Shown: one piece after another, positions 4,660 to 27,841 of the stretch | Numbering within the stretch: the stretch's first letter is position 1 | How the letters are laid out: each line of letters begins with the position of its first letter | Assembly: GCA_963747095.1 (NCBI GenBank) | Contig: CAVVEL010000022.1 | Span: 145,193-209,192, forward strand | Source of the DNA: Terriglobia bacterium | GTDB taxonomy: Bacteria > Acidobacteriota > Terriglobia > JAJPHL01 | Reading direction: 5' to 3' | DNA length: 64,000 nt | Translations under genes and position numbers: made by a program | The notes under the pieces: generated by a model | What the model was told of the DNA's origin: nothing | Seen by the model: only the letters and a program-made list of their open reading frames with translations | Database searches by the model: none

Positions 4660-7600
4660 AGTGAAGTGGAAAGCGCGACCGGAGAATTTGGAAAAGGGGG
4701 CCGTAGAGTATCGCGTTGTTATTCAAACCGATATGGATGAAGAACTCGCATCGCGTCCTGTGGTGCACTCCGGAAAGCGCGAGGAGCGTTGTAGATTTAG
4801 TGACGATGATTTTTCGACTCTAAGCGATGATGCCCTCATTTCAGCTAAGGTAGTCATTTCTGTCATTGGTAACGCAGCAGTTGAGCCAAGAGAGAGCGAA
4901 GAATTCATCATTCGCTTCGGCGAGCCACCCGATCGAGAGAAGGGAGGAGTCGGGAAGAAGGTCCGCACCTTTAGCGAGGGACTAATCGAGATAGAAAGCC
5001 GAGATCTCGTTTCCGAGATTGCCTCGTCCGTGGAGGTGTATCCCGAGGATTCCAAGGGTTTTGTTCTGATGCGGCCTCAGCGGGGTAAGAGCTTTCGGGT
5101 GTTCCGGCCTCGTTTGGTCGGTGAGGTCGAGAAGCGATGGGTAGATGAGGCGGGAGCGATTGGACGCTGGCGCGTCAAGGTGCGCTCCTCGGGCGCGCGA
5201 GCCGGTGAGGTTGAGTTCGTGCCCTGCTTACCCTCCTCTGCCGCGTTGCAATCTCTCTGGGATCGGACGGTCACCGCTAGTCGTCGCATGGCGGAGCGAT
5301 TCGCTGCGGCGGGCGGCGGCGTCGGTCAGGTCTACGATGAAAAATCAAAAGCTTTTGATTTGGTTGTCAGAGAATACCTTCTTGCGTGGACGGCATTACT
5401 GGATGAGGCGGATCCTTCACTCGCGCTTGCGAATACAGTCGAGGTTCAGTCACTTTCCGGGAGAACCATCGGCTTGATTGTACTCCCGAATCACGCACTT
5501 AGAGTTGCCTGGCTCGTCGGGTACGACAACCTTGTGTTGCATGCGGCTTTCGATCTTAGCAAGCGTCCCAGAGACATTGTAGAAGAGTTCGCGGTGCTTG
5601 ATGGTGCGATGTTTCCAGCGTTCCTACCCGGCCTGGAGCAAGGACATTCGTTCGTTTTTGCGGATACTCTCGGCTTCCATGTTGTCGGAATGGTGCCAGA
5701 TTCCGATAAGGAACCCAAGGCCGCGCTGGCGATCCTTGCCAGAGCGCTCGGAGAGAGCGAGACCGCGGATGCGGCACCAACAATCGGGGCGCAGAGTGCA
5801 ACCGTCCTGGGCAACGAGATTCTCAAATACCTCGACTGTCACAATCCCTCGAGGCTTCTCCATATCCATGCGCTAAGGCCCGGCGATGGTCTAACGGTTG
5901 CGCGGTCACTTGGCAGAGTTCAGGAGCACTATCGGCGGGTCTCAGATGAGGAAGGCATCGATCGGGAGGAGGGGCGGTCGGCCCCTGCGTTTGTGCTAGA
6001 GCTCTACCCGTCCGAAGGGCAGCGGGGAATTGCCGGACGATTTATTGCGGAAGCTCGGGAAAAGCGTCGCAGTGGAGCGGGCGTCTTGTCCATCGATGAC
6101 TATTGGATGCTTGAGTCCCAAGGTCTTCCGGGTGGAGTGAACCTTCCACGGTTACGCTGGGCACGTAAGCGCGAGCAAGATCCTAAGACGCCGGCGCATC
6201 TTGCACTGGCCTTCGACACTTTTGAATCGCGAGTTGTTGTCGAAGCTAGTGGGAGACGACGCGACGCGAGACCGCTCTATGTGTTTGGACTTCTGTCCTT
6301 TTTTGAGCGAGAGTACTCCAGTCTGCCATCACCCGTTTGGCGGAGCGTAATTCTTCCCTCGGGAGATGGCGAGAAGCATCCCTCAGACCGAACGCACACA
6401 GAGCGCCTTCTGCGCTTGCAGCAAGCTGTCCAGAGGGCGGTGGCACGGAATATTGGATCACGGGAAGACTTGCCATTCCTTAGAACCGATATCGCGCCGG
6501 ACAAAGCACAAAACCTAAGGGAGCTTCACCGCCTCTGCGACTGGGTGATCACACTGGATCGTAACGCTGGAGTTGAGTATTTTGATTCTCCCCGCGACAA
6601 TAGGGAGATCTACGATGCTTATGTAATCGACTGCGTCCCGGAGCGTGAGGATCTCGGGTGCCTGCAAATGATCACATCAACGAGTAATCTAGAAGAGGTC
6701 CGGGACCTCCTAGATGATGCGCTCGATCAGATGGGTCTCAGCCGGAGCCGCCGGAATGCGGAATTCTTAATGGACCATTTGAAGGCGCTGAGTGGACGCT
6801 TGGCAATACGCCTGACCGGAGAGAAAACTCCTACCTCAGAGCTGATTGCCTTGGCACTCTGTCACGCAAACTGTCGCAACCATTCGCATGTTAGCGACTG
6901 CTGGGTTTCTCTCGACGCAGGGTTCATTGTTCCCGTGGATGACATTCGCGATCTACTGCCCCCACTGGTTGCGACGGACAGCGACGACGAGAGGGAGTCG
7001 CGACCGGACCTGCTGTATGTTTCCCTGATTCCGAGAAAAGGATTGTTGTTTCGGTTCGTGGAAGTGAAGTATCGCAGACACCTTCGTGGTGCGCGAAGTG
7101 CCGAAGTGTTGCACGGCATCCGCGAGCAGGTGGAACCACTCAGGAAGCGGTGGGAGGATTGGTACGTTGGCGACGAGACTTGCGCGCCGTTCAGCGCAGT
7201 TCGCCGTGCCAAACTGGCGCGAGTCCTACGGTTCTACTCGGACAAGGCACATCGGCACTACTTACTTGATGAACAGTACGAAGCCATAACCGCTGAGATT
7301 GATCGAATGATTGAGAAAGGAGCAACGTACTCCTTTCCTGCAATGGAACGGTCCGACCGCGGATGGGTATTCTGCCCAGAATTCTCGGGCGAAACCCCCC
7401 TCGAGATTTCTCCCAACGATTGGGAAACGCGAATATTCTTGTTTGGCCCTGGCCTCATGCCCGATTCCGACTTTCGGTTTGAGTCGATAGCTCGTCAACC
7501 TGAGGTTGCGGCTTCCGATCCCTCAATGTCGCCTACTCCGCCGCCCGGACCAAGCGAAATGCCGTTGTCTGAGGCGGCTGCTGAAGAAGTTCCCGCGAGA

Positions 7601-8704
7601 GACGACAAACCAGACGACACAGCACAGGGCGGTGCCGAGAACCGTGCGGACGGCGAGCCTAGTTCTCTCTCCCTTGGTACGGACACGCTCACGGGTGCTG
7701 ATGTTCATTGGTCAATTTCAATCAAGGGCAATCCGCATCTCTTGCTTGCCGGCTTGCCTGGGATGGGGAAGACGACCTGCCTCCTGAATCTGTGTAACCA
7801 GATGCTTGCAGCGCAGATCCGTCCGATTGTCTTTTCGTACCATCAGGACATTGACCAGAAGCTCCAAGTGCTCGTGCCCTCCGTCCGGTTCATCGATTTC
7901 CACGGATTGGGCTTCAACCCGTTACAGGTGATCGATCGAGAGTCGAGAGTGGGGTATCTCGACGTAGCAGGGGCACTACGTGATATATTCGTCGCGATCT
8001 TCCCGGAGCTAGGCGATATTCAGGGCGAACGTATCCGGAAGGCCATCAAGGACAGCTTTTCAGAGCTGGGTTGGGACAATCCGAACTCTGTTCTCGCGGA
8101 GTTACAAGAACCGCCTTTCGGGCGATTCGTGGAGATCCTTCGAGGCGATCCAAAACAAGACAAGGGGTTGCGTACGCTGCTTGCGCGTTTAGAGGAGCTG
8201 GAAGATTACTCCTTCTTCGATCTCGGTGAATCTCGGGCGAGCCTGTGGGACAGTAAGGAGCCTATCATCATTCGCGTCCATGCGACTCAAAGCGACAACC
8301 TGCAAAGAGCCTTCGCCTCGTTAGTCTTCTACAGCCTGTATAAGGATATGTTCCGAAGAGGCCTCCAGGAACGTATCACGCATGCCGTAGTATTTGACGA
8401 GGCTCACCGCGCAGCGGGATTGAAGCTAATTCCCACGATGGCAAAAGAGTGTCGGAAGTACGGTATCTCGTTGGTAGTCGCGTCGCAGGAAGCCAAGGAT
8501 TTCAACGCGTCTCTTTTCTCGGCCATCGCAAATTATCTTGTCTTTCGCCTAACAGAGGTTGATGCCAAAGCGCTTGTGCGGAACGTTGCTAGTTCTCAGC
8601 AAGAGCGAGTACTGATCGATAAAATCAAGCAGATGGAGAGGTTCAAGGCACTGTACTTCTGCGAAGGCAAGAGCAGGCCTTCACCCGTAGTCTTAACGCC
8701 TTAG
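4448..8704 (+). CDS. Giant protein (1418 aa; ~1730 aa if fused with the upstream ORF) with a PD-(D/E)xK-like motif and C-terminal HerA/FtsK/VirB4-type P-loop ATPase
   Basis: Walker A 'LLLAGLPGMGKTTCLLNL' and Walker B 'HAVVFDEAHR' followed by 'ISLVVASQE' (AAA_10/DUF87-like arrangement). Roughly 250 aa upstream: 'RPDLLYVSLIPRKGLLFRFVEVKYRR', a PD...(D/E)xK-like pattern. A Pro/Ser/Asp-rich linker precedes the ATPase. Confidence 0.7.
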   Translation: MRISRARNIYGSMRLRVEGAAHSIQSIELLPWRTNTGKVARGSGLEDGGEGPPMLILRADSNQSGEYSKLEVKWKARPENLEKGAVEYRVVIQTDMDEELASRPVVHSGKREERCRFSDDDFSTLSDDALISAKVVISVIGNAAVEPRESEEFIIRFGEPPDREKGGVGKKVRTFSEGLIEIESRDLVSEIASSVEVYPEDSKGFVLMRPQRGKSFRVFRPRLVGEVEKRWVDEAGAIGRWRVKVRSSGARAGEVEFVPCLPSSAALQSLWDRTVTASRRMAERFAAAGGGVGQVYDEKSKAFDLVVREYLLAWTALLDEADPSLALANTVEVQSLSGRTIGLIVLPNHALRVAWLVGYDNLVLHAAFDLSKRPRDIVEEFAVLDGAMFPAFLPGLEQGHSFVFADTLGFHVVGMVPDSDKEPKAALAILARALGESETADAAPTIGAQSATVLGNEILKYLDCHNPSRLLHIHALRPGDGLTVARSLGRVQEHYRRVSDEEGIDREEGRSAPAFVLELYPSEGQRGIAGRFIAEAREKRRSGAGVLSIDDYWMLESQGLPGGVNLPRLRWARKREQDPKTPAHLALAFDTFESRVVVEASGRRRDARPLYVFGLLSFFEREYSSLPSPVWRSVILPSGDGEKHPSDRTHTERLLRLQQAVQRAVARNIGSREDLPFLRTDIAPDKAQNLRELHRLCDWVITLDRNAGVEYFDSPRDNREIYDAYVIDCVPEREDLGCLQMITSTSNLEEVRDLLDDALDQMGLSRSRRNAEFLMDHLKALSGRLAIRLTGEKTPTSELIALALCHANCRNHSHVSDCWVSLDAGFIVPVDDIRDLLPPLVATDSDDERESRPDLLYVSLIPRKGLLFRFVEVKYRRHLRGARSAEVLHGIREQVEPLRKRWEDWYVGDETCAPFSAVRRAKLARVLRFYSDKAHRHYLLDEQYEAITAEIDRMIEKGATYSFPAMERSDRGWVFCPEFSGETPLEISPNDWETRIFLFGPGLMPDSDFRFESIARQPEVAASDPSMSPTPPPGPSEMPLSEAAAEEVPARDDKPDDTAQGGAENRADGEPSSLSLGTDTLTGADVHWSISIKGNPHLLLAGLPGMGKTTCLLNLCNQMLAAQIRPIVFSYHQDIDQKLQVLVPSVRFIDFHGLGFNPLQVIDRESRVGYLDVAGALRDIFVAIFPELGDIQGERIRKAIKDSFSELGWDNPNSVLAELQEPPFGRFVEILRGDPKQDKGLRTLLARLEELEDYSFFDLGESRASLWDSKEPIIIRVHATQSDNLQRAFASLVFYSLYKDMFRRGLQERITHAVVFDEAHRAAGLKLIPTMAKECRKYGISLVVASQEAKDFNASLFSAIANYLVFRLTEVDAKALVRNVASSQQERVLIDKIKQMERFKALYFCEGKSRPSPVVLTP

Positions 8705-8716
8705 CCCAAACACACT

Positions 8717-9991
8717 CTACGCCCCTGCCTCATGTTCGGCTCTGTACATCAGCAACAGCCATTGGCTGAGCTCCAGAGTAAGAGAAGACTCTGTTCTCAA
8801 CACCAGGGCACGGAAATCAAAATCGATATCATCGAGGGAACGTGATGGAGCCTTCGCTTCCTGTACCAAAGCGAGCAGCTCTCCATGATGACCGTGAAGT
8901 AATCCTTTCTCCCGACTGTAGATGCGGCTGCGCCCCCGAAAATTGTACATGGCCTGAATGCCAAAAACGGCGGTCGCTACCGGGGGAAGCGTAATTCCGA
9001 ACAATCCAATAGCGATTGAGGCTATGCTCCCTTCGGCGGCGTCCCCTGCCTCCAAGCCATGATACAGGTGGCAACCGTGGAGAAATGCAACGACGATCGC
9101 GCACAGGAGCGTGAGCTTGAGAAACTGAGAGGCGAATCGTTCGTTCTCTTCGCAGTCGCGCAACTCATTGGCAAACCACAGTAGCTGCTTGCCAAGGCGC
9201 TGGTGGAGATAACACTCCATACGATCTAGGCAGTCAGTGCTCGCTGTCTGCCTGGCGTAAACGTATAGGTGCTCCATCCAAGTCTTCCCACCATAATCTT
9301 GTAATGGGACCAACTCCGAGAGAGCTCCGAAGTCAGTGCCTTCAATCTGTCCTCGTCGCGTTGCCGCCATGCGGGCCGCGGATGACTCATCGTAGCCAAG
9401 ATAGGGACCGACTCCTGCAACCAGCAGATACTGCTCACGGCGCAGAATCTCACATCGGAGTCGATTTCCAATCCATTCCGCAGTAGGCTCTGGCGCGGTC
9501 CATACGAGATACAGAAGAGTCCCTAGACAGAACGCCTCTGAAAGGATGAGGCCAAATGCCCAACCGCCTCCGTGAGGCCAGATAAGAACTTGGAGAGCGA
9601 GCAGGAGAAGCGCAGCCGGCGAAAGAACCGCGGCGCGTATTCCATTGGCGAAGTAATGCCCTTGAGCTTCAACGGCCCGGTTAAGATACTTCCATTGGGC
9701 TTCGTGAAGATGCTTTCCACCTCCGAACGCCTCCGGCTTGCGGACGCCTGTAGGTATGCTTAAGTCGTGGGCGGGAAACTGCTCCCGTCGCTTCGTTCTG
9801 CGCTCGTAGGACGCGCTCCTCTGCCAAAAATAGATCTCCTGCGAAAGCCAGAGCGCAAGGAGGAATACAAGAGGAGAGAACACCACCTGAGCCCAGGATG
9901 CAGATGCGCGAACCCCGGTGGCCAGTGCACCGACGAGGAGCACTGCACCCAAAGCAATTCGTTGCTTGTTTGTTGACTGAGCGAGCATCAT
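8717..9991 (-). CDS. 6-TM membrane protein built from three 'amphipathic helix + 2 TM' units; SLATT-like (speculative)
   Basis: Hydrophobic pairs at roughly aa 12-52, 108-158 and 288-345, separated by charged helical segments with W/Y/R/E-rich motifs ('RCEILRREQYLL', 'YNFRGRSRIYSREKGLL'). Last gene of the signalling operon, 45 nt after the REC-AlbA_2 gene. Confidence 0.5.
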   Translation of the reverse strand: MMLAQSTNKQRIALGAVLLVGALATGVRASASWAQVVFSPLVFLLALWLSQEIYFWQRSASYERRTKRREQFPAHDLSIPTGVRKPEAFGGGKHLHEAQWKYLNRAVEAQGHYFANGIRAAVLSPAALLLLALQVLIWPHGGGWAFGLILSEAFCLGTLLYLVWTAPEPTAEWIGNRLRCEILRREQYLLVAGVGPYLGYDESSAARMAATRRGQIEGTDFGALSELVPLQDYGGKTWMEHLYVYARQTASTDCLDRMECYLHQRLGKQLLWFANELRDCEENERFASQFLKLTLLCAIVVAFLHGCHLYHGLEAGDAAEGSIASIAIGLFGITLPPVATAVFGIQAMYNFRGRSRIYSREKGLLHGHHGELLALVQEAKAPSRSLDDIDFDFRALVLRTESSLTLELSQWLLLMYRAEHEAGA

Positions 9992-10036
9992 CGACCTTGC
10001 GTCCTAAAACACTCTAGCCAAGATTCTTCGACTTGG

Positions 10037-10909
10037 TTATCCCCATCTCGTCTTGCAGTACTCGATTGCCTCCCGCGTAGACAACTGTCGGGTTGAGTTC
10101 CCCGCTCGAATATACAGGTGCTCGCCGCCGCTCCCATCGGGAACGAAGACAGCTCTCCGCGCTGGTCTTGCGGACGCGCGGCACACATCACTACCCTCCA
10201 CGTTTTCGAAGTCGATTCCAATCAGTGGGCTGATGTCCTTTCCAAAAGCCCCGAGCAAGAGTGTCACGAGGAAATTTTCGAAACCGTCTCTGTCTTGTTT
10301 TTTGAGGGTCTTATAGTCATTCTCCAGGCCGACCACGTGACCGCTGTCATCAACCCCAATCAGCAGGAAGCCACCCTCAGAGTTCAGGAATGCTGCTACG
10401 GTCTTGACAATAACGACCTCCAACTCGTGATTTATCTTCTTAAGCCGTACATCCCAGCGAGCCGAAGTCTTAAACTCCAGTCCAGTGCTCTCACCTCTCT
10501 TGATCATCACAGAGACTGGTTCTTCGGGTAGCTTATTCAACGCCTTTCTTACTCGCGCTTGGAGCTCGTTGACGAGATCTTTCTTGCCCTTCGAAATGTA
10601 GTCGAAGGCGCCCACCTTCATACTCTCGACAGCATCTTCAAGCTCCGCGAAACCAGTGAGAATGATCCCTCGTAGGTCAGGCAATGTCTCTCGCAAACGG
10701 CCAAGCAGTGCAATACCAGACACTTCACTCGAAATTCGTTGATCGAGAATCGCGAGGGAAAAGTGCTCTGCCCGCGCCATTGCTTCTGCCTCTCTTGGAT
10801 CCGTTGTAACATGCAATTCATACTCACTCCCAAGCATGTCTTGGATTGTCTCGAGCCATGACTGCTGGTCGTCCACCACCAAGATCCGATGCCTATGCAT
10901 ACAAATCAC
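10037..10909 (-). CDS. Response regulator: N-terminal REC domain fused to AlbA_2 (Schlafen-like) domain
   Basis: REC: 'ILVVDDQQSWLETI...LAILDQRI...ILTGF'. AlbA_2 signature 'ESTGLEFKTS...VKTVAAFLNSEGGFLLIGVDDSGHVVGLE'. 4-nt overlap with the upstream gene. Confidence 0.75.
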   Translation of the reverse strand: MICMHRHRILVVDDQQSWLETIQDMLGSEYELHVTTDPREAEAMARAEHFSLAILDQRISSEVSGIALLGRLRETLPDLRGIILTGFAELEDAVESMKVGAFDYISKGKKDLVNELQARVRKALNKLPEEPVSVMIKRGESTGLEFKTSARWDVRLKKINHELEVVIVKTVAAFLNSEGGFLLIGVDDSGHVVGLENDYKTLKKQDRDGFENFLVTLLLGAFGKDISPLIGIDFENVEGSDVCRASARPARRAVFVPDGSGGEHLYIRAGNSTRQLSTREAIEYCKTRWG

Positions 10910-12165
10910 TCTCCACGACTTCGGTCAGAACTGAGTGTCTGGACCAGTCTTGTGAAGCCATCTCGCTTGAAAAGATCGGTGTATTGGAATCTACTGAAGG
11001 GCTGGCCGCCTTCGCAATCGTCAAGCCGAGCGATGAGGAAGTAAACAGAACCCTCCCGCATGCCATCCTGGCGATCAAGGGCCTGCCTGACCTCCCGACG
11101 AATGACACCTTCCTTGCCAACGGAGTTATTCGATAGGAAGAAAACGAAATAGTCGGACTGTGCTATAGCCCTCCGAATCGCAGGCTCCCATTCTCCCGCA
11201 AGGATACTCTTGACGTCCATCCAAGGTAGAAAGCCCTCTCCTGTTAGCTTCTCGAAAATATGAGATACCCTGATACGATCTGTCTTCTCATAAGAGAGAA
11301 ACACTCGTATCGGCATTGCATGATCGGCGAGAACCCTCGTCACAGCCTCGTGGAGAGTCTTGAGATCCCCCTTGGAGACGTAGTCCAGGGCTCCTCTCCT
11401 GCCGCCCTCGAGTGCGCTCTTGTAGTCTGGCTGTCCCGTAAGGATGATCGCTCGGAGATTGGGCGCGGCCTTGCGCATCTTACTGAGGACATCGAGACCA
11501 TTGACGCCACCGCCCAAAATCATGTCAAGAACGACGAGGGCGAAACGCTCTTTCTTCAGGCGACGGTAGGCCTCCTCGTGGCTCGTTGTCAACGTTAGCT
11601 CGAACTCAGGCTCCAATACCTGCGAGATTGTGTCGAGCCAGGCCTGTTCATTGTCAACAACAAGTAAGTGTTTCCTCCCACGTCGCGCGCTCTTGGGCGT
11701 GGCACCTTGGCGGGTATCGATCTTCAGTTCACGACTAGTGGCACTCGGCGTTTCGATAAGCGGCTTCGGTGGAATCGCCGCGATTGATTGGACGTCAGAA
11801 ATGGCTTCCGTGAAGGCGCTCGTAATCTCTGCCCAATCTATTGGGTTCTTTTTGAGATATCTAAAGGCACCCAATCCCTCCGCCTCAACTTCCGTCTTGG
11901 CCTCCGGAAGTCCTGTCAAAATGATCACTTTCCCCAAAGGGCGCCGTATCGACCTTGCCCGGCGAAGAATCTCAATGCCGGACATATCGGGAAGCATTAG
12001 ATCCAAAAAAATAACGTCAAACTGCTTGGCCGCTATCAGGTCCAACGCGGTTGCCCCATCCTCCGCCTCCGAAACGACGCATTCAAATTCCACAAGGATC
12101 TCCCGCAGAGTCAGCCGAGCGACCTTCCGATCCTCCACAATCAGTACCTGGGCCGCCCTCGTCAT
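10906..12165 (-). CDS. Response regulator with tandem REC domains and C-terminal TIR domain
   Basis: REC1 'VLIVEDRKVARLTL...VIFLDLMLPDMSG', REC2 'LLVVDNEQAWLDTI...LVVLDMILGGGVNG'. TIR: 'IRVFLSYEKTDRIRVSHIFEKL...WMDVKSILAGEWEPAIRRAIAQSDYFVFFLSNNSVGKEGVIRREV'. Confidence 0.8.
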   Translation of the reverse strand: MTRAAQVLIVEDRKVARLTLREILVEFECVVSEAEDGATALDLIAAKQFDVIFLDLMLPDMSGIEILRRARSIRRPLGKVIILTGLPEAKTEVEAEGLGAFRYLKKNPIDWAEITSAFTEAISDVQSIAAIPPKPLIETPSATSRELKIDTRQGATPKSARRGRKHLLVVDNEQAWLDTISQVLEPEFELTLTTSHEEAYRRLKKERFALVVLDMILGGGVNGLDVLSKMRKAAPNLRAIILTGQPDYKSALEGGRRGALDYVSKGDLKTLHEAVTRVLADHAMPIRVFLSYEKTDRIRVSHIFEKLTGEGFLPWMDVKSILAGEWEPAIRRAIAQSDYFVFFLSNNSVGKEGVIRREVRQALDRQDGMREGSVYFLIARLDDCEGGQPFSRFQYTDLFKRDGFTRLVQTLSSDRSRGE

Positions 12166-12911
12166 GTGGCTCCGCCCACAAGGGGAACCGTAATGATAAA
12201 CGAGGCTCCTCTTCCGAACTCACTCTCAACCCTGATCTTGCCGCCAATGAAATCAAGCTGAGTTCGAACTAGCCATAATCCTAAACCGCTGCCTTCAACT
12301 TTCGTCGTAAAGTCCGGTTCGAAAATTCTCCCCTGATCCTCTAGCTTAATGCCTGGTCCATTGTCCTTGATCTCCACGGCCGCACAGCCAACCCATCCAC
12401 CTACTCCCTTCGATGTAGTCACCGTAACTACACCTCTCCTCGTACTCTGTAGCGCCTGGTATGCGTTGATAATGATATTTCTAATTAGTTGAGTAAACTG
12501 AGTACGATACACCTCGCATACGAGGGGTGTCTCGCAGGGAAACACCTTTAACTTCACTGCCTGGGCGTTCTCCAAATGAGACAAGTCGAGTGCCTCCATC
12601 GCATCGCGTACTACTTCATTAATGTCTAGCGGCCCCTTGTCTCCCATGCGATTGGGTGCCAAACCAGCAACCTTATTAGCAAATTCCGTTGCCTGGTTTG
12701 CCGCATCCTGAATAAGTGACAGCTTTCGATCAATTCGTTCGTTCGCCACGCCAATTAACTTTCTTATCCCAATTACATTCGCCGGAATCAATCCGGAAGT
12801 ATTGTTGATTTCGTGAGCCACTGCCCTGACCAGCAAGGACAGATTGGCGTTTCTGTCGGCAATGGCCACAAGCCTGTCATTGGCCACCTTGTACATTTGA
12901 GCATTCTCCAC
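12162..12911 (-). CDS. HisKA+HATPase_c histidine kinase module; almost certainly the C-terminal part of 12877..14991 (one REC-GAF3-HK gene split by a 1-nt indel)
   Basis: H-box 'VRAVAHEINN', G-boxes 'IKDNGPGI', 'GSGLGLWLV'. Upstream of the called start the same frame reads 'ADYVGVAVENAQMYKVANDRL', the canonical GAF C-terminus. Confidence 0.75.
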   Translation of the reverse strand: MENAQMYKVANDRLVAIADRNANLSLLVRAVAHEINNTSGLIPANVIGIRKLIGVANERIDRKLSLIQDAANQATEFANKVAGLAPNRMGDKGPLDINEVVRDAMEALDLSHLENAQAVKLKVFPCETPLVCEVYRTQFTQLIRNIIINAYQALQSTRRGVVTVTTSKGVGGWVGCAAVEIKDNGPGIKLEDQGRIFEPDFTTKVEGSGLGLWLVRTQLDFIGGKIRVESEFGRGASFIITVPLVGGAT

Positions 12912-14991
12912 AGCGACGCCAACATAGTCCGCAAAGGTCCTGAAGAGACTCGAGATCGGCCTCGCAGTAGCGCAGATCGTCCCCGACCTTGTTAATGACC
13001 TTCATCGCACCCACGGTCTTGTCCTTTGCGACTATAGGGACCACCATAAGCGAATCAATATTTCGGATCTCTTTATGCTTCTTCTTCAAGAACGCGCAGA
13101 TTATGTTGTCATACTTGCCATCGTTCTCCTGCGGCGATACTTGAAGCCACGCTCTACCCGTATGGGCAACGGATCCAGTAACACCTTCACCCATGTTATA
13201 GAACGCACCAGTTATCATGGGCATGCCATATGATTGCCTCAATACTATCCTGCCTTCACTGTCGCGCAGGAACAACATACAAATCTCAGCCTGCATTACT
13301 TTCGCCATTTGCTCAATGGTCACCGCCAGGACGTCTTCAATATTCAGTGCCGAACTAATCACCCGCCCAACTTCACCGAGAGAGCGTAGTTGCTCCACTT
13401 GAAGTTCTTTCTCCTTGACCAATTCCGCGTTGCTGATTGCAACGGCGAGATGGCTAGCGGTGATCTCGAGCGCATTTCGGCAGTCACCGCTGAAACCGCG
13501 TTCGAGGAGGCAGTGAAAATCCTGATGGGGCGGGACCCGACCGTAATGCTTCGATTTCTTATTCATCGCACGCAAGACGCCCCGCACCTGATCACCTATC
13601 CGTATCGGCACGCCCAGATAATGAGCCACTTTCCTCGACGGAATATTGTCCAGATAACCCTCTTTTCCGGTGTGATCATACCGCTTGTCCTCCAACGGTG
13701 TCACACGGACGGAGGCCTTAGGATCCGGGAGCTGGATCGTCTCCTGATTCTTAAACACAGCACCAACCAAGCTCTCTCCCGGTCGATAAAACTCTGACGG
13801 TGTCTCGACACGTCTCCCGCCACGGAACTCCGCTACATTCTCGATCACTTGGGTGAGTTCGTTGTAAAGAAAGATAGAAATTACTTCCGGATGCACGATC
13901 GCTGAGATGCCTTGGATAACAGCTGTGTAAATCTGCGGAATGACGTCCGGCCCTTTTAGCCGGCCAATCTTGTTTAACATTTCGCTGATTTGGCTGTAGT
14001 CTCGGTGAATCTCGCCCCGGATCCTCTGCAGCCATGCCTTCGTGAGCGTCAGAGCCGCTAGAGTAACGAACTCACTTACAATACTGGCGCGTTGATCGTC
14101 GAAAAAGGCAACACGGTCTGCGCTGACATTGATCACGGCGTTAACAGCTTGGCCGAAGAGACCGGTGGTGATGGGAATGATATACGCGGAGCGAGCCCGT
14201 TGTAGGTAGAGGCGTTGGGCTGGGGGCGTGGCCTGGTCGGAGAGGGCGGCATCCGCGACCTTCCTGAAATTCACGTCCTTCTGCAAGTCACGGATGTTTG
14301 CAGGACTTCCCGTCTCGACAACTCCTCCGGAAAATGGGTCGCCTTTTGCCTTTGGGAGGGTAAACATCTGGCGCTGAGCTTCGTCTGTACCAGCAAACCC
14401 GCCCAGGCGATAATCCCCATACTCCAGGTCGTACACCCGTATGTGACAGGTGTACGCGCCAACGGTTGATCTAACAGCCGTGCAGATCTCATCGAGAATC
14501 GCCTCGATCTTCTCGTTGGCGCTGATCTTCTGCTGTACATCCAAGAGCAGACGAAGCTTGCGGTTGACCTGTTCCCTCTCGAGATCTTTGAAGGCTTGGT
14601 CTACAGAGAAGCGCAGGGCTTCAGTCCCCGTTTTTGGGAGATAGTTGAAGATCTTATATTCGCCTGCACGTTCGGCCGGCAGGCGACTCTCGTGACCTGT
14701 CAATACGATTACTCTGTATTCAGCCGAACGGTCCTTAATAGCTTCGAGAATGGCGGTACCGGCAACTGTTCCGAGAGACTCAAAGGAGAGGTCGAGTAGA
14801 ATTACTCGAATCTCCGGCTGGTCTCGTAAGATCGCGATACCTTCGTCGGGCGATTCAGCTTCAATGAACGTATAGTTGTCATTCCGGAAAAGATGCTTAA
14901 CCGTCTCACGCGATAACAGTTCATCGTTGACTAGCAGTACGGCTCTACTCATGTTAGTGCTTGCCCCCACATTTGATGATTTCCTGGTCAA
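12877..14991 (-). CDS. REC + three GAF domains (N-terminal part of a hybrid REC-GAF3-histidine kinase)
   Basis: REC 'VLLVNDELLSRETV...VILLDLSF'. Three GAF-like blocks. The last 18 aa ('CGLCWRRCGECSNVQGGQ') are out-of-frame junk. A frame switch at ~12945-12950 (extra T in 'cttt') restores 'LESLQDLADYVGVAVENAQMY'. Confidence 0.75.
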   Translation of the reverse strand: MTRKSSNVGASTNMSRAVLLVNDELLSRETVKHLFRNDNYTFIEAESPDEGIAILRDQPEIRVILLDLSFESLGTVAGTAILEAIKDRSAEYRVIVLTGHESRLPAERAGEYKIFNYLPKTGTEALRFSVDQAFKDLEREQVNRKLRLLLDVQQKISANEKIEAILDEICTAVRSTVGAYTCHIRVYDLEYGDYRLGGFAGTDEAQRQMFTLPKAKGDPFSGGVVETGSPANIRDLQKDVNFRKVADAALSDQATPPAQRLYLQRARSAYIIPITTGLFGQAVNAVINVSADRVAFFDDQRASIVSEFVTLAALTLTKAWLQRIRGEIHRDYSQISEMLNKIGRLKGPDVIPQIYTAVIQGISAIVHPEVISIFLYNELTQVIENVAEFRGGRRVETPSEFYRPGESLVGAVFKNQETIQLPDPKASVRVTPLEDKRYDHTGKEGYLDNIPSRKVAHYLGVPIRIGDQVRGVLRAMNKKSKHYGRVPPHQDFHCLLERGFSGDCRNALEITASHLAVAISNAELVKEKELQVEQLRSLGEVGRVISSALNIEDVLAVTIEQMAKVMQAEICMLFLRDSEGRIVLRQSYGMPMITGAFYNMGEGVTGSVAHTGRAWLQVSPQENDGKYDNIICAFLKKKHKEIRNIDSLMVVPIVAKDKTVGAMKVINKVGDDLRYCEADLESLQDLCGLCWRRCGECSNVQGGQ

Positions 14992-15481
14992 GCACGTCGT
15001 AGTCCAACGGTTTATTGACGAAGCCCTCGCCGAGCTGCAGAGATCTTTCGATGTTATACGGAGTGTTATCTGCGGATATGAAGATAACTGGCGTGTTAAA
15101 TCCTTGCGCTCGCATCATCTCACATACCTCGAACCCATTCCTTTCTGGCATCTTGATGTCTAGGAGAACAAGGTCAATGGCATCCGTACCGCCCATGATA
15201 TCGAGCGCCATGTCTCCGCCTTCGGCCTCAGCAACGTCGGCGCCATATTGTTGAGAAAGCCAAACGGCGAGAGCAGTGCGAAAAATGTCAGTGTCATCCA
15301 CAATCAGTATCCGGCGCAGCCACGGGATCCTATGACGGATGAGGGCATCATCTACGAAAGGCGGGTCAATAGGAGTATTGGAACCGTCTCCCTCCGCACC
15401 GTTCGCAAGAACAAAGTGAAACGCTGGAATATTCACCACGATTGTAAGACCCATGAATTTGGGGGGCGCAAAAGTCGTCAA
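14954..15481 (-). CDS. Single-domain response regulator (REC)
   Basis: 'RRILIVDDTDIFRTALAVWL...LVLLDIKMPERNGFEVC...PVIFISA'; stop overlaps the downstream start. Confidence 0.7.
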   Translation of the reverse strand: MTTFAPPKFMGLTIVVNIPAFHFVLANGAEGDGSNTPIDPPFVDDALIRHRIPWLRRILIVDDTDIFRTALAVWLSQQYGADVAEAEGGDMALDIMGGTDAIDLVLLDIKMPERNGFEVCEMMRAQGFNTPVIFISADNTPYNIERSLQLGEGFVNKPLDYDVLDQEIIKCGGKH

Positions 15482-18216
15482 GCGCGTGTCTCCTTTGGAA
15501 CGGGATGGGCTGGGTGGCTTGCTTGAGTGTCGGTCTGTGCCTGTGCGAGCCGAAACGCTGGCAGAGTGAGCCGAAAACAGATTCCACCACCCTCTTGGGA
15601 CTCAACTACGATGGCGCCACCGTGGCCTTCGAGGATTGTCTTGCTGATGAAAAGGCCGAGACCGCTACCCGTCTCTTTCGTTGTGAAGAGAGCGGTGAAG
15701 AGACTCGTTCTAATATCCTCTGAGATTCCGCAACCATTGTCGCACCAGACGACTAGGATGTCGGCACCTGCGATTGTCATCGCGAGGTTGATCCGCCCGC
15801 CGTATTTCCAACCTCTGGTCGCCCTGATAGCCTTGATCGCGTCGATGGAGTTACCAAAAAGATTTGCGAATACCTGACGTAGCTGATCAGCATCAGCAAG
15901 CACCAGCGCGTCGTCCTCCGGGTACGTAGCCCGGAATTCGACACGACTGGCTTCGGCGCGCTTCTTCATGCTGGCTTCAAACGCCTGGAGAATAGCCTTG
16001 AGCGACACGACCTGCATCGTTGGTGCCGGTGGACTGGCTGTCATGAGAAGATTCTGTAGCTTGCCAAGGGCGCTATTACTTGCCTCGCGGATTGCCGCGT
16101 ACGTCTCAACCGTCGAACCGCCTCTTGATTGTTGTTGTAAGGTCGTCACATATGTCAGGACGGCGCCAAGATCATGCTTGATGTCATGGCCTGTCTTCTC
16201 AGCCAGCTTCCGAAGCGCGGCCAGCGTATCCAGGCGAACCTTCTCCCGTTCCTGGCGGAGCACTTCCCTTTCGTCCTTGAAAACGCCAAGGCGGCCTATT
16301 TCCTTTCCCGCGTTGTCGAGAAAGAGGGTCGCGGACATCCGGATGGGAATAACATTTCCTTGCACATCTCGAATTCGGACACGGCGGTCCCAGATCACAT
16401 GATCCCTGGCTTGGCGAAGATCACGGACAATCTGCTTGGCATCTTCCGGAAATTCGAAATAAGTCTCCACAGACGTGCCCAAAACGTCCTTCTCGATCAT
16501 TCCCCAAATGTTCTCGCATTGCCGGTTGAAGTTCTGAATCTTTCCTAGTTTATCGACCACGATGATTGGATCTGGAGAATTGTAAACTAAATTCTGGAAA
16601 TATTTGTTGCTTTCAATGAATTCGGCATTTCGGATTGCTGAGACGATCTGGGTAGCGATCAGTTTTAGAAGGTCGAAATCTTCTGGTTGAAAACCGTCAC
16701 GAGACAGGCTTGTGCGACCGGCTGGCGGGTCGTAGTCCGGCGCTTTCTTGTTGAGGACTCTGATAACCCCGAGGATGTCACCGCCGATGAGTAGGGGTAC
16801 CCCTATATAGTGACGGGTCTCCCGGGAAGGCAGGAGGCCCGAATAAACATCGGCGTAGTCCTCGTCACGCGGTATCGGGTTCAGCAGGCTCCCTTGCTTG
16901 CTTGCAAATACTCGTCCGGTGAGGCTCTCGCCTTTCTTGTAGAAACGCTCTACCTCCTTGAGCCTCGCGGTCGTCTCGGAATCTGGGCCCGCTACAGCCA
17001 CCTTCTCCAATCTAGCGCCTGCATCCCTGACCACGAAGAGAGCAGCCTCTTCCGAGCGGAGCTCCGCCGAGACAAGCTCCACTACTTTCTGGAAAACCTT
17101 ATCGAGGCCCTGTTCCGCCCGTAGTTGGTGGCCGATCTCGCTAAGCAAATTCAAGCGGCCTTTGTTTTCGTTGTCACGAGACGCGAGGTCTCGATATAGC
17201 TGGGCGTTCTTGCGCGCCATCACGATCAAGGGAGCCATGCTCAACAACTTCCGTACATCGTTAAATGTGTAGTAGTGGAGCCGGTCGCGCGAGAATACTC
17301 CGAGAACACCCAGGAGCGTGCCGTCAATGTTTAAAGGAACAAGGTTCGCAGGGAGGACGGCATTGCCGGGCGAGTCGGGCAACGGAAACGTGGCACGAGT
17401 GCGCCATTCTAACTTTGCCTCTTTGCGGACTCGGTGATAATACTGTTCCACGAAACGGATGGCCTCTGACTCGTCTGATTTATTCCTCGTGAGACTAGTG
17501 TCCACTGGGCTCGCCAACGCATATGTAGCCGTTATCTTCTCACCTTCAACGAGGGCGACCGCGCCGACATCGGAGTTGGTTATCTCCATCGCGGTGCTCA
17601 AGATTGACCGCATGACTTGCGTGATGTCCGCATTTGCTAAGATTTCCCGGTCGATCTTCTCGATCGCAGTGACAAGATTTGCCTCCGCGCGGTCGCGCAT
17701 CCTCGCAAGATTCGTCGCGGTTAGCGCGACTCCTATTTGAACCGCCGCCCAAAGCCAAAACTCGTAGCCACCGCGGCCGCTATCTACAATTCGGACACTG
17801 CCCGCGATCGCGTAGAGAAGTGAGGAGAAGATCGCGACCAAAATGGCGCTAACCGGGCCCAAATACCTCGCTTGGGACAGTATGGGGAAGAGATATAGAA
17901 GGTGCCACGGGCTTCGGAAGCCACCAGTTGAGTTGACCAGCAACGAGATCGCGACCAGGTCCAGCAAGTCCCGAAATGCACGGAACCTTTTCTTCCGGAG
18001 CAGCGGAGACTGCGGGAGTGCGATAGCAAGAATGGTCGCGAGGTAAAAGATGATGATCCAGGAAATACGCTTGGGATGATCGAACACCGGGGTAAACCGC
18101 ACGGCCAGGAGAGTTGCGATCGAGACTGCAAGACGTGTCTGCACCGTCCGTATCCCTGGGTGCAGAGCATGAGTCAGGTTTGCCTTGGCGAGCGCTGATT
18201 GAAGCCGACTCAGCAT
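15478..18216 (-). CDS. Membrane-anchored sensor histidine kinase (multi-TM N-terminus, GAF/PAS region, HisKA, HATPase_c)
   Basis: N-terminal hydrophobic helices; 'HDIKHDL' H-box; 'DNGCGI', 'GSGLGLFISK' ATP-lid motifs at the C-terminus. Confidence 0.8.
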   Translation of the reverse strand: MLSRLQSALAKANLTHALHPGIRTVQTRLAVSIATLLAVRFTPVFDHPKRISWIIIFYLATILAIALPQSPLLRKKRFRAFRDLLDLVAISLLVNSTGGFRSPWHLLYLFPILSQARYLGPVSAILVAIFSSLLYAIAGSVRIVDSGRGGYEFWLWAAVQIGVALTATNLARMRDRAEANLVTAIEKIDREILANADITQVMRSILSTAMEITNSDVGAVALVEGEKITATYALASPVDTSLTRNKSDESEAIRFVEQYYHRVRKEAKLEWRTRATFPLPDSPGNAVLPANLVPLNIDGTLLGVLGVFSRDRLHYYTFNDVRKLLSMAPLIVMARKNAQLYRDLASRDNENKGRLNLLSEIGHQLRAEQGLDKVFQKVVELVSAELRSEEAALFVVRDAGARLEKVAVAGPDSETTARLKEVERFYKKGESLTGRVFASKQGSLLNPIPRDEDYADVYSGLLPSRETRHYIGVPLLIGGDILGVIRVLNKKAPDYDPPAGRTSLSRDGFQPEDFDLLKLIATQIVSAIRNAEFIESNKYFQNLVYNSPDPIIVVDKLGKIQNFNRQCENIWGMIEKDVLGTSVETYFEFPEDAKQIVRDLRQARDHVIWDRRVRIRDVQGNVIPIRMSATLFLDNAGKEIGRLGVFKDEREVLRQEREKVRLDTLAALRKLAEKTGHDIKHDLGAVLTYVTTLQQQSRGGSTVETYAAIREASNSALGKLQNLLMTASPPAPTMQVVSLKAILQAFEASMKKRAEASRVEFRATYPEDDALVLADADQLRQVFANLFGNSIDAIKAIRATRGWKYGGRINLAMTIAGADILVVWCDNGCGISEDIRTSLFTALFTTKETGSGLGLFISKTILEGHGGAIVVESQEGGGICFRLTLPAFRLAQAQTDTQASHPAHPVPKETRA

Positions 18217-20031: not shown

Positions 20032-20319
20032 ATGTCGAAGACACACACGGGCGCCATTCGAAGATACACTGGCCCTGAGCCCTGCATCTTCGTGAGCTAC
20101 GCCCAAGTCAACAGTGCGGATGTGTTTCCCGACATCACCCGCCTGCACGGAAAGAAGCGGGAAACGGTAGAATACCTGGATCTGGGACGCGGCGGCATTC
20201 ATGTAGCCGAATACCTCACCGAGTTGCCTCCGCGCGAGGTATTGCGCGAGCGCTTCCATCAGGCGCTGGCAACTGCGCGTGAAAGGCTGGCGAGTGGCGG
20301 AGAGAAGCAAAGCTCATGA
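20032..20319 (+). CDS. Small hypothetical ORF (95 aa) whose stop overlaps the hsdR start
   Basis: ATGA overlap with 20316; no recognisable domain. Confidence 0.25.
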   Translation: MSKTHTGAIRRYTGPEPCIFVSYAQVNSADVFPDITRLHGKKRETVEYLDLGRGGIHVAEYLTELPPREVLRERFHQALATARERLASGGEKQSS

Positions 20320-23300
20320 ACACGGTCGGCCAGATCGAGAAGAAGACGCAGCGGCGCGTGGTGAAGCTGTTCCGCGACGTACTCGGCTACGACTATCTTG
20401 GCGATTGGACCGACCGGGAGATCAATAGCAATATTGAAACGGACCTCCTGGAGAAGTACCTGCGAGAAGAGCGCGGTTACGAAGATAGTCTGATTGCCCG
20501 CGCCTTGCACCTGTTTTTGAAAGCGGCAGGCGATACCAGCAAGAGCCTTTACGACCGCAACCGCGAAGTTTACGGCATGCTGCGCTACGGCGTGAAGGTG
20601 AAAGCCGAGCAGGGTGAGAATACCCAAACGGTTTGGCTGATCGACTGGAAGCGTCCCGAGCGGAACCATTTCGCCCTCGCGGAAGAAGTGACGGTGCTGG
20701 CGAACGACGCCAAGGCTCATACTAAACGTCCCGATATCGTGCTCTACGTCAACGGGATTGCCTTGGGAGTGCTGGAACTCAAGCGCTCCATCGTCTCTGT
20801 CGCGGAAGGCATCCGGCAGAATCTCGACAATCAGAAGAAGGTCTTCATCGAGCATTTCTTCTCCACTGTGCAACTGGTGATGGCCGGCAACGACACGGAG
20901 GGTCTGCGATACGGTTCTATCCAGACACAGGAAAAGTACTACCTGACGTGGAAAGAGGAGAGTGCCATCGAGAAACCGATGGACCGCGCCCTGACCCAGC
21001 TTTGCGGGAAGGCCCGCTTGTTGGAGTTGATCCATAACTTTGTGGTATTTGACGCCGGGACAAAGAAGCTTTGCCGTCCCAACCAGTACTTTGGCGTGCA
21101 CGCGGCACAGGAGCATGTGAAACGCAGGGAGGGTGGGATTATCTGGCACACCCAAGGCTCAGGCAAGAGCCTGACGATGGTGTGGCTGACCAAATGGATT
21201 CGCGAGAACGTGAAGGATGCCCGGGTACTTGTCGTCACCGATCGAACGGAACTCGATGAGCAGATCGAGGGCGTCTTCAAAGGCGTGAACGAACAGATCT
21301 ACCGGACGGAAAGCGGAATGGATCTGATCGCGCGACTGGACGGCTCGACGCCGTGGCTGCTCTGTTCCCTGATCCAAAAGTTCGGCGCGAAGAGTAAGGC
21401 CCGAGAGAAGGAAGACGAAGAGGGTGACATTGGCGGTTATCTTCGCGAACTAAAGGATGCCGTGCCGCCCGGCTTTTCGGCCAAAGGGAATCTGTTCGTG
21501 TTTGTGGACGAGTGTCACCGCACTCAGTCCGGCGACCTGCATGACGCCATGAAGGCGATCCTGCCAAACGCCGTCTTCATCGGCTTCACGGGCACACCGC
21601 TGTTGAAGAAGGACAAGCGGAAGAGCATCGAGGTGTTCGGGCGCTACATCCACACCTACAAGTTTGACGAAGCCGTGCGCGACAAGGTGGTCCTTGACCT
21701 TCGTTACGAGGCGCGGGATATCGACCAGAACATCACGTCACAGGCCAAGATCGACCAGTGGTTCGAAGCCAAGACAAAAGGCCTTACGGACCTGGCCAAA
21801 GCCAGCTCAAGCAGCGCTGGGGCACGATGCGGAAGGTGCTTTCCAGCCAATCGCGGCTCGAGAAGATTGCGGCTGAAATCCTGATGGACATGGAAACACG
21901 CGATCGACTGGCAAGTGGTCGAGGGAACGCTGTTCTCGTGTCGGGCAGTATCTATCAGGCGTGCCGGCTATACGAGATCTTCGCCAAGACCGATCTTGCG
22001 GGCAAGTGTGCGATCGTCACCTCCTACCGGCCATCGCCGAACGACCTAAAGGGCGAGGAGAGCGGCGAAGGACTGACGGAAAGGCTCCGGCAGTATGAGA
22101 TCTACCAGAAGATGCTCGCGGATTGGTTCAACGAACCACCTGAAACCGCCGTGACCAAGTCCGAGAAATTTGAAGATGCGGTGAAGGACAAATTCATCCA
22201 TGAGCCCGGCCAGATGAAGCTGCTGATCGTTGTCGACAAACTGCTCACCGGCTTCGATGCCCCGCCGGCCACCTATCTTTACATCGACAAGCAAATGCGC
22301 GATCACGGTCTTTTCCAGGCGATTTGCCGCGTGAACCGCCTGGATGGAGAAGACAAGGAATACGGCTACATTGTCGACTACAAGGATCTGTTCAAGAGCT
22401 TGGAAGGCGCGGTGAACGATTACACTTCCGGGGCGCTCGATGGCTTCGACGCAGAGGATGTCGCCGGATTGCTGGAAGACCGGCTGGCCAAAGCGCAAGA
22501 ACACTTGGAAGAGGCGCGTGAGGCTGTTAAGGCGCTTTGCGAACCGGTGGATGCGCCAAAGGACTCGGCGGCGTACCTCCGCTACTTCTGCACCAAGGAT
22601 GCCGGAGACGCGGAACAGCTAAAGCAGAACGAACCAAATCGGCTGGCGCTCTACAGGTACGTTGCGGCACTGGTTCGGGCGTTCGCGAATGTCGCCAATG
22701 AAATGAGCGAGGCGGGCTACACGCCCGCCCAAACCGAGTTGATCCGAGACGAAGTGGGTCACTACGAGAAGGTGCGTGGCGAAGTGAAACTGGCTAGTGG
22801 CGACTACGTCGATTTGAAGATGTACGAGCCCGCGATGCGGCACCTGATCGACACCTACATCCGAGCCGAGGACAGCGTGAGTCTCTCGGCGTTCGATGAC
22901 CTTTCACTGGTGGAATTGATTGTGGAGCGTGGTCCGGACGCGGTCAATGCGCTGCCGAAGGACCTCCGCGACAACAAAGAGCTTGCCGCTGAAGTGATCG
23001 AGAACAACGTCCGCCGATTGATCATAGACGAACAGCCAATCAATCCCAAGTACTACGAGAAGATGTCCGAGCTACTTGACCTGCTGATCGCTCAGCGGAA
23101 GAAAGAGGCGATGGAGTATCAGCAGTATCTCCAGAAGATCGTCGCGTTGGCCAAGCAGGTAATGAGCCCATCCGGCGAATCCTACCCAGTCAAGGTGAAT
23201 TCGCCAGCGCGGCGGGCACTCTACGATAATCTTGGCAAGGATGACAGCCTCGCTTTGGCGGTGGACGAGGCCGTACGAACGAGTCGGCAAGACGAATGGC

Positions 23301-23416
23301 GCTCCAATCCGTTCAAGGTGAAGAAGGTCCGGCTCGCCATCAAGCAGGCGCTCGCCGGCGACGAGGCTCTTACAGACCAAGTGCTGGAACTGGCAAAGAA
23401 CCAAAATGAGTACTGA
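20316..23416 (+). CDS. hsdR: Type I restriction enzyme R subunit (HsdR), split into two ORFs by a frameshift near 21795; orphan (no hsdM/hsdS in the window)
   Basis: N-terminal 'VVKLFRDVLGYDYLGDW'; helicase motif I 'IIWHTQGSGKSLTMVWL'; motif II 'VFVDECHRTQSG'; 'FIGFTGTPL'; motif VI 'QAICRVNRL' in the second ORF. Junction: 'LTDLAK|AQLKQRWGTMRK'. Confidence 0.75.
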
Positions 23417-27747: not shown

Positions 27748-27841
27748 TGGCGGAGAGGGAGGGATTCGAACCCTCGTTAGAGGTATTAGCCCCTAAAACG
27801 GTTTAGCAAACCGCCGCCTTCAGCCACTCGGCCACCTCTCC
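27748..27841 (-). tRNA. tRNA-Ser (anticodon GCU), long variable arm
   Basis: Reverse complement reads 'GGAGAGGTGGCCGAGTGGCTGAAGGCGGCGGTTTGCTAAACCG...GGGTTCGAATCCCTCCCTCTCCGCCA': acceptor stem pairs, D-loop 'AGTGG', anticodon loop 'TTGCTAA', T-loop 'GGTTCGAATCC', encoded CCA. Confidence 0.8.

Follow-up and report, generated by a model that had tools for sequence, protein, structure and literature searches.

The window analysed here, a stretch of 64,000 nucleotides from a Terriglobia bacterium, carries an operon of two-component signalling genes in which one response regulator ends in a TIR domain and another in a Schlafen-type AlbA_2 domain. All long open reading frames (ORFs) of the region 8717-18216 lie on the minus strand, at the coordinates first given in the ORF list. 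The proteins of the window were scanned with Pfam and domains were called at E <= 0.01. From 5' to 3' the genes encode a first histidine kinase (HK1), a lone receiver (REC), a second histidine kinase (HK2) with a receiver and three GAF domains in front of its kinase part, a REC-REC-TIR protein, a REC-AlbA_2 protein and a tandem-SLATT-like protein with six transmembrane (TM) segments:

15478..18216, minus strand: HK1, membrane sensor histidine kinase, 912 aa, with GAF, GAF, PAS and DHp/HATPase_c (GAF_2 1e-18, PAS 9e-13, HATPase_c 2e-20)
14954..15481, minus strand: lone REC, ORF of 175 aa with the receiver at aa 58-168 (Response_reg 1.4e-22)
12162..14952, minus strand: HK2, hybrid kinase REC-GAF-GAF-GAF-DHp/HATPase_c, from Pfam and a frame-switching tblastn alignment
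12877-14991, minus strand: N-terminal ORF of HK2, 704 aa (Response_reg 3e-11, three GAF stretches, 4e-26)
12162-12911, minus strand: C-terminal ORF of HK2, 249 aa (DHp with 'AVAHEINN', HATPase_c 1.5e-20)
10906..12165, minus strand: REC-REC-TIR response regulator, 419 aa (two Response_reg, 8e-40; TIR_2 1.5e-18)
10037..10909, minus strand: REC-AlbA_2 response regulator with a Schlafen-type nuclease domain, 290 aa (Response_reg 1e-17, SLFN_AlbA_2 1.4e-16)
9992..10036, minus strand: spacer of 45 nt between the REC-AlbA_2 and SLATT-like genes, without a promoter-like or terminator-like site
8717..9991, minus strand: tandem-SLATT-like membrane protein, 424 aa (sub-threshold SLATT_1/DUF4231 matches only)

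An earlier note, made from the letters of this DNA, had counted seven genes. The seven ORFs represent six genes, one of which is split in two. When the intact HK2 of a related locus (L012) was aligned by tblastn, it followed one frame to residue 698 and another frame from residue 687, with the switch at 12922-12947, and this joins the ORFs 12877-14991 and 12162-12911 into a single gene, whose frame is broken by one extra nucleotide between 12922 and 12947. The context of the lesion is 'CAGGACCTTTGCG', where the expected reading is ..LQ[D/T]FADYVGVAVENAQMY.. as in the orthologues. The alternative frame reads ..FADYVGVAVENAQMYK, which is a normal end of a GAF domain and agrees with the orthologues, all of them unbroken single genes of 915-947 aa. 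The ATG at 14952 is the likely start of HK2. A comparable single-base change occurs in hsdR nearby, and because both lesions fall within a short homopolymer, an assembly error is a likelier cause of the HK2 frameshift than a real inactivation of the second kinase.

The genes of the operon are tightly packed. HK2 and REC-REC-TIR overlap by 4 nt, as do REC-REC-TIR and REC-AlbA_2. HK1 overlaps by 4 nt with the listed ORF of the lone REC, which starts with TTG; the actual start of this receiver is probably further downstream, and its orthologues were called at 132-184 aa. A single nucleotide separates the lone REC from the likely ATG of HK2. The core genes on the minus strand are thus co-directional and overlap or abut, but the SLATT-like gene, contrary to the earlier note, is not translationally coupled because it is preceded by the gap of 45 nt. 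Its co-transcription with the operon is plausible. The domain assignments of the earlier note were confirmed by Pfam, that of the SLATT-like protein at the level of its family. Its term 'phosphorelay' was too loose: no Hpt domain was found by Pfam in the six window proteins, and the arrangement is therefore that of a two-tier kinase cascade (kinase, receiver-gated second kinase, response regulators) and not of a His-Asp-His-Asp relay. HK1, which is the conserved first gene of the operon across the related loci, has N-terminal hydrophobic segments at aa 51-69 and 119-137, and its L012 orthologue shows a weak match to 6TM_PilS. Pfam detected no TPR domain in HK1 or HK2 and no helix-turn-helix (HTH) or other DNA-binding domain in REC-REC-TIR or REC-AlbA_2.

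The conservation of the REC-REC-TIR protein was followed in an alignment of 11 family members. D12, D55, T84 and K106 of the first receiver, D171, D214 and K265 of the second receiver and E358 of the TIR domain were invariant in all of them. Across 61 TIR relatives the conservation of E358 was 90% or higher. In a TIR-only profile its column aligned with the glutamate of 'KEI' in SPARTA TIR-APAZ, of 'EEL' in Roq1 and of 'DEL' in Cat1, which we take to be the catalytic glutamates of these proteins. Relatives of the TIR domain numbered 11,006 when searched exhaustively by HMMER, and 3 in a word-indexed search. The best 150 of the 11,006 include ten REC-REC-TIR proteins of 399-419 aa, several shorter REC-TIR proteins and P0029 (947 aa), a REC-REC-TIR protein with a long C-terminal extension. 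REC, TIR_2 and AlbA_2 are fused in the single proteins P0143 (L056 112-1371), also one of these 150, and P0275, which are encoded on short contigs; the two outputs of the operon are therefore linked. Two further architectures were seen among the relatives. P0026 (1778 aa) combines three TIR stretches with a REC, a weak match to GerE (LuxR-type HTH) and S1 RNA-binding domains, and in P0040 (1013 aa) a SLOG (LDcluster4) region precedes REC-TIR.

The REC-AlbA_2 protein scored 61.5 bits with SLFN_AlbA_2 (cut-off 25.3), and in a phmmer search against the PDB its AlbA_2 domain aligned with the C-lobes of SLFN11, SLFN5, SLFN8 and SLFN14 at 1e-5 to 2e-4. Conservation was scored over 56 homologues. The receiver residues D13, D14, D56, T85 and K107 were invariant in 56 of 56, and so were E140, E145, F146, K147 and D188 of the AlbA_2 domain. 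The stretch E140-STGL-E145-F-K147 corresponds to the motif Ex4(E/D)xK, for which a survey of the pSlfn proteins reports a catalytic role in SLFN11 and in the Schlafen tRNases of bacteria (PMC13056530). An Ex4ExK RNase activity of the Schlafen type is predicted for REC-AlbA_2, with tRNA as its probable target. An AlphaFold2 model of the protein reached a pLDDT of 93; when the full-length model was used in Foldseek, receiver-domain matches dominated and were uninformative on the AlbA_2 half. The family comprises 285 matches, and of the 120 clusters listed about 100 combine REC with AlbA_2, at 47-80% identity. It is common in soil metagenomes yet annotated generically, as 'ActR/RegA family response regulator', 'RNA-binding domain-containing protein' or 'predicted HTH transcriptional regulator'.

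Since the Asp pocket, the acceptor Asp, the Thr and the Lys are invariant in the first receiver of REC-REC-TIR and in the receiver of REC-AlbA_2, and the second receiver of REC-REC-TIR keeps D171, D214 and K265, the receivers of both effector regulators look phospho-competent. The general idea of the earlier note, that toxic or effector-type outputs are gated by receivers, appears to be right in the light of these invariant catalytic and phospho-acceptor residues. It had also pointed to a TIR domain without the catalytic Glu as a possible objection, and E358 is kept.

The occurrence of the operon was then followed in other genomes. When species-representative genomes were scanned with the alignment of REC-REC-TIR proteins, nine full-length loci were obtained, all in metagenome-assembled genomes (MAGs) of Acidobacteriota (Thermoanaerobaculia, Terriglobia). 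Look-ups with REC-AlbA_2 added three more: L053/54, a near relative from soil metagenomes, L055 from a Longimicrobiaceae MAG, and L057 on a contig of 4.85 Mb. Longimicrobiaceae belong to the Gemmatimonadota. The comparison set was thus 12 loci besides the window, which were annotated locally. The order HK1, REC, REC-GAF-kinase, REC-REC-TIR, REC-AlbA_2 was found in 7 of the 12 (L012, L014, L017, L018, L019, L020 and L055). Three others were variants: in L016 the lone-REC ORF was not found, L053/54 has shorter kinases, and in L057 the cluster is altered and partly duplicated, with REC-REC-TIR split into REC and REC-TIR. REC-AlbA_2 is missing in L021, in L022 and in a second cluster inside L020. 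The conserved unit is therefore kinase, REC, REC-GAF-kinase, REC-REC-TIR and REC-AlbA_2, without SLATT. Its genomic position was different in each genome examined.

Several of these loci carry additional genes. In L018 two genes are inserted between HK1 and the lone REC (4889-6393). One encodes a small HATPase_c protein. In the product of the other a REC is joined to a Nuc_deoxyrib_tr-like (SLOG/TIR-like) domain, and this would make it a third type of nucleotide-processing output under receiver control. In L057 (10945-16910) the duplicate part adds another REC-GAF-kinase, one REC-TIR and one REC, and is followed by a convergent gene for a 626-aa SLATT_1 protein. Next come genes for a PLD-SNF2 helicase and for an MmeI-like methyltransferase/restriction protein, which carries an AlbA_2 domain. 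A Thoeris-like cluster lies directly downstream of the closest orthologous operon, in L053 at 6034-10370; it comprises genes for a 407-aa TIR_2 protein and for a SLOG (LD_cluster2/3) protein together with three ThsB_TIR genes.

The last gene of the window operon encodes the SLATT-like protein. Its own matches were sub-threshold, with 17.8 bits for SLATT_1 (Pfam cut-off 26.3) and 22.4 bits for NCBIfam (cut-off 41). In an index of 5.8 billion proteins, 21 relatives were detectable, chiefly from soil and peat metagenomes, and all 21 family members matched both SLATT_1 (best 1.2e-8) and DUF4231 (best 6.5e-8) at E <= 1. For several homologues precomputed matches to PF18181 or PF14015 exist that are graded faint or weak. 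The six hydrophobic segments form three hairpins (12-30/31-49, 120-138/145-163 and 286-304/326-344). The conserved core consists of two helix-2TM-helix units, a DUF4231-like unit at aa ~95-200 and a SLATT_1-like unit at aa ~255-415, and is preceded by a variable N-terminal 2TM hairpin. The AlphaFold2 model is all-helical with long hairpins (pLDDT 84, pTM 0.80), and no solved structure was found for comparison with it. Together, the family matches and the model support the SLATT assignment of the window protein at the family level. A transporter or another confident non-effector fold, which the earlier note had considered as a counter-argument, was not found; with E358 kept as well, two of the three counter-arguments of that note fail.

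The family of the SLATT-like protein was then inspected for its gene neighbours. A TIR gene was directly adjacent in 13 distinct other contexts, and the partners were TIR-WD40, TIR with a periplasmic-binding-like domain, TIR-TPR, SIR2-TIR and other TIR proteins. That these partners and the TIR of the window form one shared subfamily was ruled out, as the identities were ~20-30%. At the other loci of the family no receiver or kinase gene was present. Conversely, the family profile of the SLATT-like protein gave no match at any of the 12 other operon loci, so the protein, which the earlier note had listed among the products of the operon, is not a conserved member of it. Because the family pairs with TIR elsewhere and is absent from these 12 loci, the SLATT-like gene is a TIR-associated accessory module that was added to the kinase operon in this window only. 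In the window it lies on the same strand as REC-REC-TIR, at a distance of 915 nt. The 626-aa protein beside the L057 cluster is unrelated to it but reaches 28 bits with SLATT_1 (cut-off 26.3), and has four TM segments and a weakly SLOG-like N-terminus. Since this SLATT_1 protein and the TIR/SLOG genes of L053 adjoin their clusters, the addition of a SLATT gene to the kinase operon seems not to be random.

The operon is located in a region of 51-58% G+C that ends at a tRNA-Ser(GCT) gene (27748-27841). Past this gene the DNA has mostly 57-65% G+C, and the first two genes checked there are ordinary, encoding an amino-acid permease and a HEAT-repeat protein. The window from 1 to 28000 looks like a tRNA-flanked genomic island. 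Its other features are:

4448-8704, convergent with the SLATT-like gene and ending 13 bp from it: ORF of 1418 aa
19062-19955, divergent from the operon across an intergenic region of 845 bp: TIR_2 with the start of an AAA_16/STAND NTPase, 297 aa, apparently truncated
20316-23416: type I restriction R subunit (hsdR; HSDR_N, SWI2_SNF2, T1R_D3-like) in two overlapping ORFs, with an apparent 1-nt deletion near 21800
23406-24134, after the restriction R subunit: YgjP-like metallopeptidase gene
24168-27524: Ser/Thr protein kinase-TPR-TIR_2 protein, 1118 aa, with the kinase N-terminal and TIR_2 C-terminal

The 24168-27524 protein would be another kinase-linked TIR, with a kinase of the eukaryote-like type. 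The 1418-aa ORF was considered as dnaE by analogy to L012, but this was ruled out since Pfam gave weak P-loop matches alone (nSTAND3 4e-4, AAA_22 and TraG-like, residues ~1085-1350). The ORFs at 436-4659 had no Pfam match. An Acido-Lenti-1 RNA (Rfam RF01687) at 33766-33813 scored 38 bits (gathering score 37) and agrees with the acidobacterial origin of the window.

The locus is best read as a two-component system for defence or dormancy that resembles Detocs and has TIR and Schlafen as its outputs, to which a TIR-to-SLATT branch like that of type VII Thoeris would be added. In this operon HK1, with its TM segments and GAF and PAS domains, would detect a membrane or cytoplasmic cue, autophosphorylate and pass the phosphoryl group to the receivers. 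The lone REC may act as a phosphoryl sink that buffers against stray signal, after DtcB of Detocs, and the N-terminal receiver of HK2 would gate a second, GAF-controlled kinase, by which the decision would be thresholded or of the AND type. Oligomerisation is a known requirement of TIR NADases and of Schlafen nucleases. Phosphorylation of REC-REC-TIR would bring about a receiver-mediated oligomerisation by which the TIR active site is assembled and E358 cleaves or cyclises NAD+. In the same way, phosphorylated REC-AlbA_2 would oligomerise and its Schlafen-type Ex4ExK RNase would be switched on, probably against tRNA. NAD+ processing and RNA cleavage together would halt growth, in abortive infection or in dormancy. 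In the window only, the SLATT-like protein would probably sense an ADP-ribose-type signal made by the TIR domain and permeabilise the membrane, like ThsH of type VII Thoeris. As a whole we give this reading, of a two-component cascade with two kinases and with response regulators that bear enzymatic growth-arrest effectors in place of DNA-binding domains, an even chance. More tentatively, REC-REC-TIR may be a phosphorylation-switched maker of an ADP-ribose-derived messenger that is read by SLATT or SLOG-SLATT membrane effectors at the loci that have them, while the co-activated Schlafen RNase stops translation. This would amount to a Thoeris-like pathway with a histidine-kinase input instead of direct recognition of a phage protein and with two arms that kill or arrest in parallel. 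It would be widespread among the Acidobacteriota of soils and would also occur in a Longimicrobiaceae MAG; we regard this proposal as a whole as possible but doubtful.

A number of observations weigh against the Detocs-like reading with its TIR-to-SLATT branch. The SLATT-like gene is absent at all 12 other loci, and in the window REC-AlbA_2 intervenes between it and the TIR gene. HK2 is frameshifted in this assembly, and a real lesion would mean that this genome has a broken cascade. The GAF, PAS and TM sensors are of the ordinary environmental kinase type, unlike the TPR sensor of Detocs. PADLOC had no model match for HK1, HK2 or the SLATT-like protein (the presence of Detocs models in its set is unconfirmed), and the window TIR matched modestly the models of SAVED-TIR and of an Argonaute-associated TIR. 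The window TIR is a TIR_2, and ThsB_TIR was not among its Pfam matches at E <= 0.01; two type VII ThsB sequences, in contrast, looked ThsB-like by eye, and no particular product is predicted for the window TIR. Finally, at least six of the related loci have a housekeeping gene on at least one side, which is atypical for defence genes. The flanking genes in L012, L014, L016, L018, L019 and L055 are dnaE, an aminotransferase gene, uvrA, glnA, an aconitase gene and an alpha-amylase-like gene.

These housekeeping flanks make a stress or dormancy role a live alternative. The same biochemistry would then serve a physiological purpose, in which starvation, redox or envelope stress, sensed by way of the GAF, PAS and TM parts, leads to NAD+ turnover and tRNA cleavage and so to a reversible dormancy that is not directed against phages. 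It is supported by the gene order, which is strongly kept over 43-80% identity in several acidobacterial classes and suggests a stable function, and by the sensor domains, which are typical of metabolic kinases. In addition, scans of viral contigs gave no matches for the SLATT-like and REC-AlbA_2 families. However, TIR, Schlafen and SLATT domains have chiefly been characterised as immune effectors. The position of the operon varies per genome, and the Longimicrobiaceae copy (65% identity) is as close to the window as the acidobacterial copies are, which suggests horizontal transfer. The operons of the window, L053 and L057 also sit among TIR, SLOG, SLATT or restriction genes. We think a purely physiological purpose rather unlikely, and between anti-phage abortive infection and stress dormancy we lean slightly towards defence. 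Far less probable is an ordinary regulatory two-component system in which AlbA_2 would be a nucleic-acid-binding domain of a regulator and TIR a non-catalytic adaptor for protein-protein contacts. AlbA_2 proteins are indeed annotated as response regulators, RNA-binding proteins or HTH transcriptional regulators, and HTH fusions are common among bacterial AlbA_2 proteins according to the pSlfn survey (PMC13056530). Yet neither response regulator of the window has an HTH or another DNA-binding domain, Ex4ExK and D188 are invariant in 56 REC-AlbA_2 proteins and E358 in 11 REC-REC-TIR proteins, and the window TIR aligns with TIRs of the NADase type.

The position of the SLATT-like gene allows another explanation, namely that it has no functional tie to the kinase operon. 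It would be what is left of a separate TIR-SLATT pair that arrived in the same island, and would now serve another TIR protein there or be orphaned. Its absence from 12 of 12 other operon loci would be expected in this case, and so would the directly adjacent TIR partners of its family in 13 contexts, none of them with a REC or kinase gene. The gap of 45 nt without an overlap, two more TIR proteins within 15 kb and the truncated or split genes of the island point in the same direction. Against this, the gene is on the same strand and follows REC-AlbA_2 after only 45 nt without a terminator-like site, and the TIR gene nearest to it is REC-REC-TIR, 915 nt upstream, whereas the others are 9-14 kb off and on the opposite strand. 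An unrelated SLATT protein stands alongside the L057 cluster as well. Moreover, the partner TIRs of the family are very diverse (~20-30% identity between types), so that partner switching would be normal. We judge such a separate origin to be improbable, though by no means negligible.

If the Detocs-like reading with a TIR-to-SLATT branch is true, TIR-SLATT modules can plug into differing sensing front ends. The operon would also offer a clean and genetically tractable switch for studying the activation of TIR enzymes, which could be mimicked or blocked by Asp-to-Glu and Asp-to-Ala exchanges or by BeF3-.

Each part of the locus is known from other systems, whereas no description of the combination and its wiring was found in the literature searched; that on REC-TIR-type proteins yielded nothing relevant. 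The operon is not assigned to Detocs or to Thoeris. The remark of the earlier note that it was not aware of a characterised system with this combination holds for the combination but not for its elements, which have relatives in Detocs, type VII Thoeris and the Schlafen tRNases. With pSlfn proteins such as RorSlfn5 and Cash of type III CRISPR the window shares the AlbA_2/Schlafen domain, the Ex4(E/D)xK motif and the fusion to a sensor or regulatory domain. It differs in that the regulatory domain is a phospho-receiver within a kinase operon. The main text of the pSlfn survey reports 55 architectures, naming GHKL kinase-like, HTH, DUF5929, Ig-like and other fusions, and does not mention a receiver fusion (PMC13056530). 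The SLATT/DUF4231 2TM effectors of conflict systems described by Burroughs, Aravind and colleagues resemble the membrane protein in the helix-2TM-helix unit, in the linkage to nucleotide-generating enzymes (TIR) and in the predicted pore-forming role. The window protein differs from them by scores below the Pfam and NCBIfam cut-offs and by its two SLATT-like units with a variable N-terminal hairpin.

In type VII Thoeris the TIR protein ThsB acts with the SLATT effector ThsH through canonical cyclic ADP-ribose as the signal; receivers or kinases are not mentioned in that paper (bioRxiv 10.64898/2025.12.03.692087). The window likewise has a TIR gene and a membrane protein of the SLATT clan in one locus and on the same strand, and for the window, as for Thoeris, activation of a membrane effector by a TIR product is predicted. 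Unlike the stand-alone ThsB, however, the window TIR is a TIR_2 fused to two receivers, and its trigger would be phosphorylation and not direct phage sensing. The REC-AlbA_2 gene lies between the TIR and SLATT genes, and the SLATT protein, of 424 aa, has a tandem form to which a further 2TM hairpin is added.

Detocs consists of the kinase DtcA with a TPR sensor, the lone receiver DtcB and the receiver-effector DtcC, for which modular swapping of effectors is documented (bioRxiv 10.1101/2023.01.24.525353). The likeness is seen in the gene layout: a histidine kinase is followed by a stand-alone receiver, together with a regulator that has a toxic-enzyme output. In the window, the genes for HK1, the lone REC, REC-REC-TIR and REC-AlbA_2 all point the same way and overlap or abut. 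The lone REC occupies the 'buffer' position of DtcB, a parallel that we infer from the Detocs paper, where an Asp mutant of DtcB was toxic (bioRxiv 10.1101/2023.01.24.525353). In contrast to Detocs, the window has a pair of effector regulators, and its first kinase is followed in series by another that is gated by a receiver of its own and by three GAF domains. As a sensor the window has the TM/GAF/PAS type and not TPR. The effectors reported for Detocs are PNP, restriction endonuclease (REase), TOPRIM and a TM alpha/beta hydrolase (bioRxiv 10.1101/2023.01.24.525353), whereas those of the window are TIR and Schlafen. If the proposed reading is correct, the defensive or dormancy two-component signalling known from Detocs would extend to TIR and Schlafen, which are much-studied immune effector domains.

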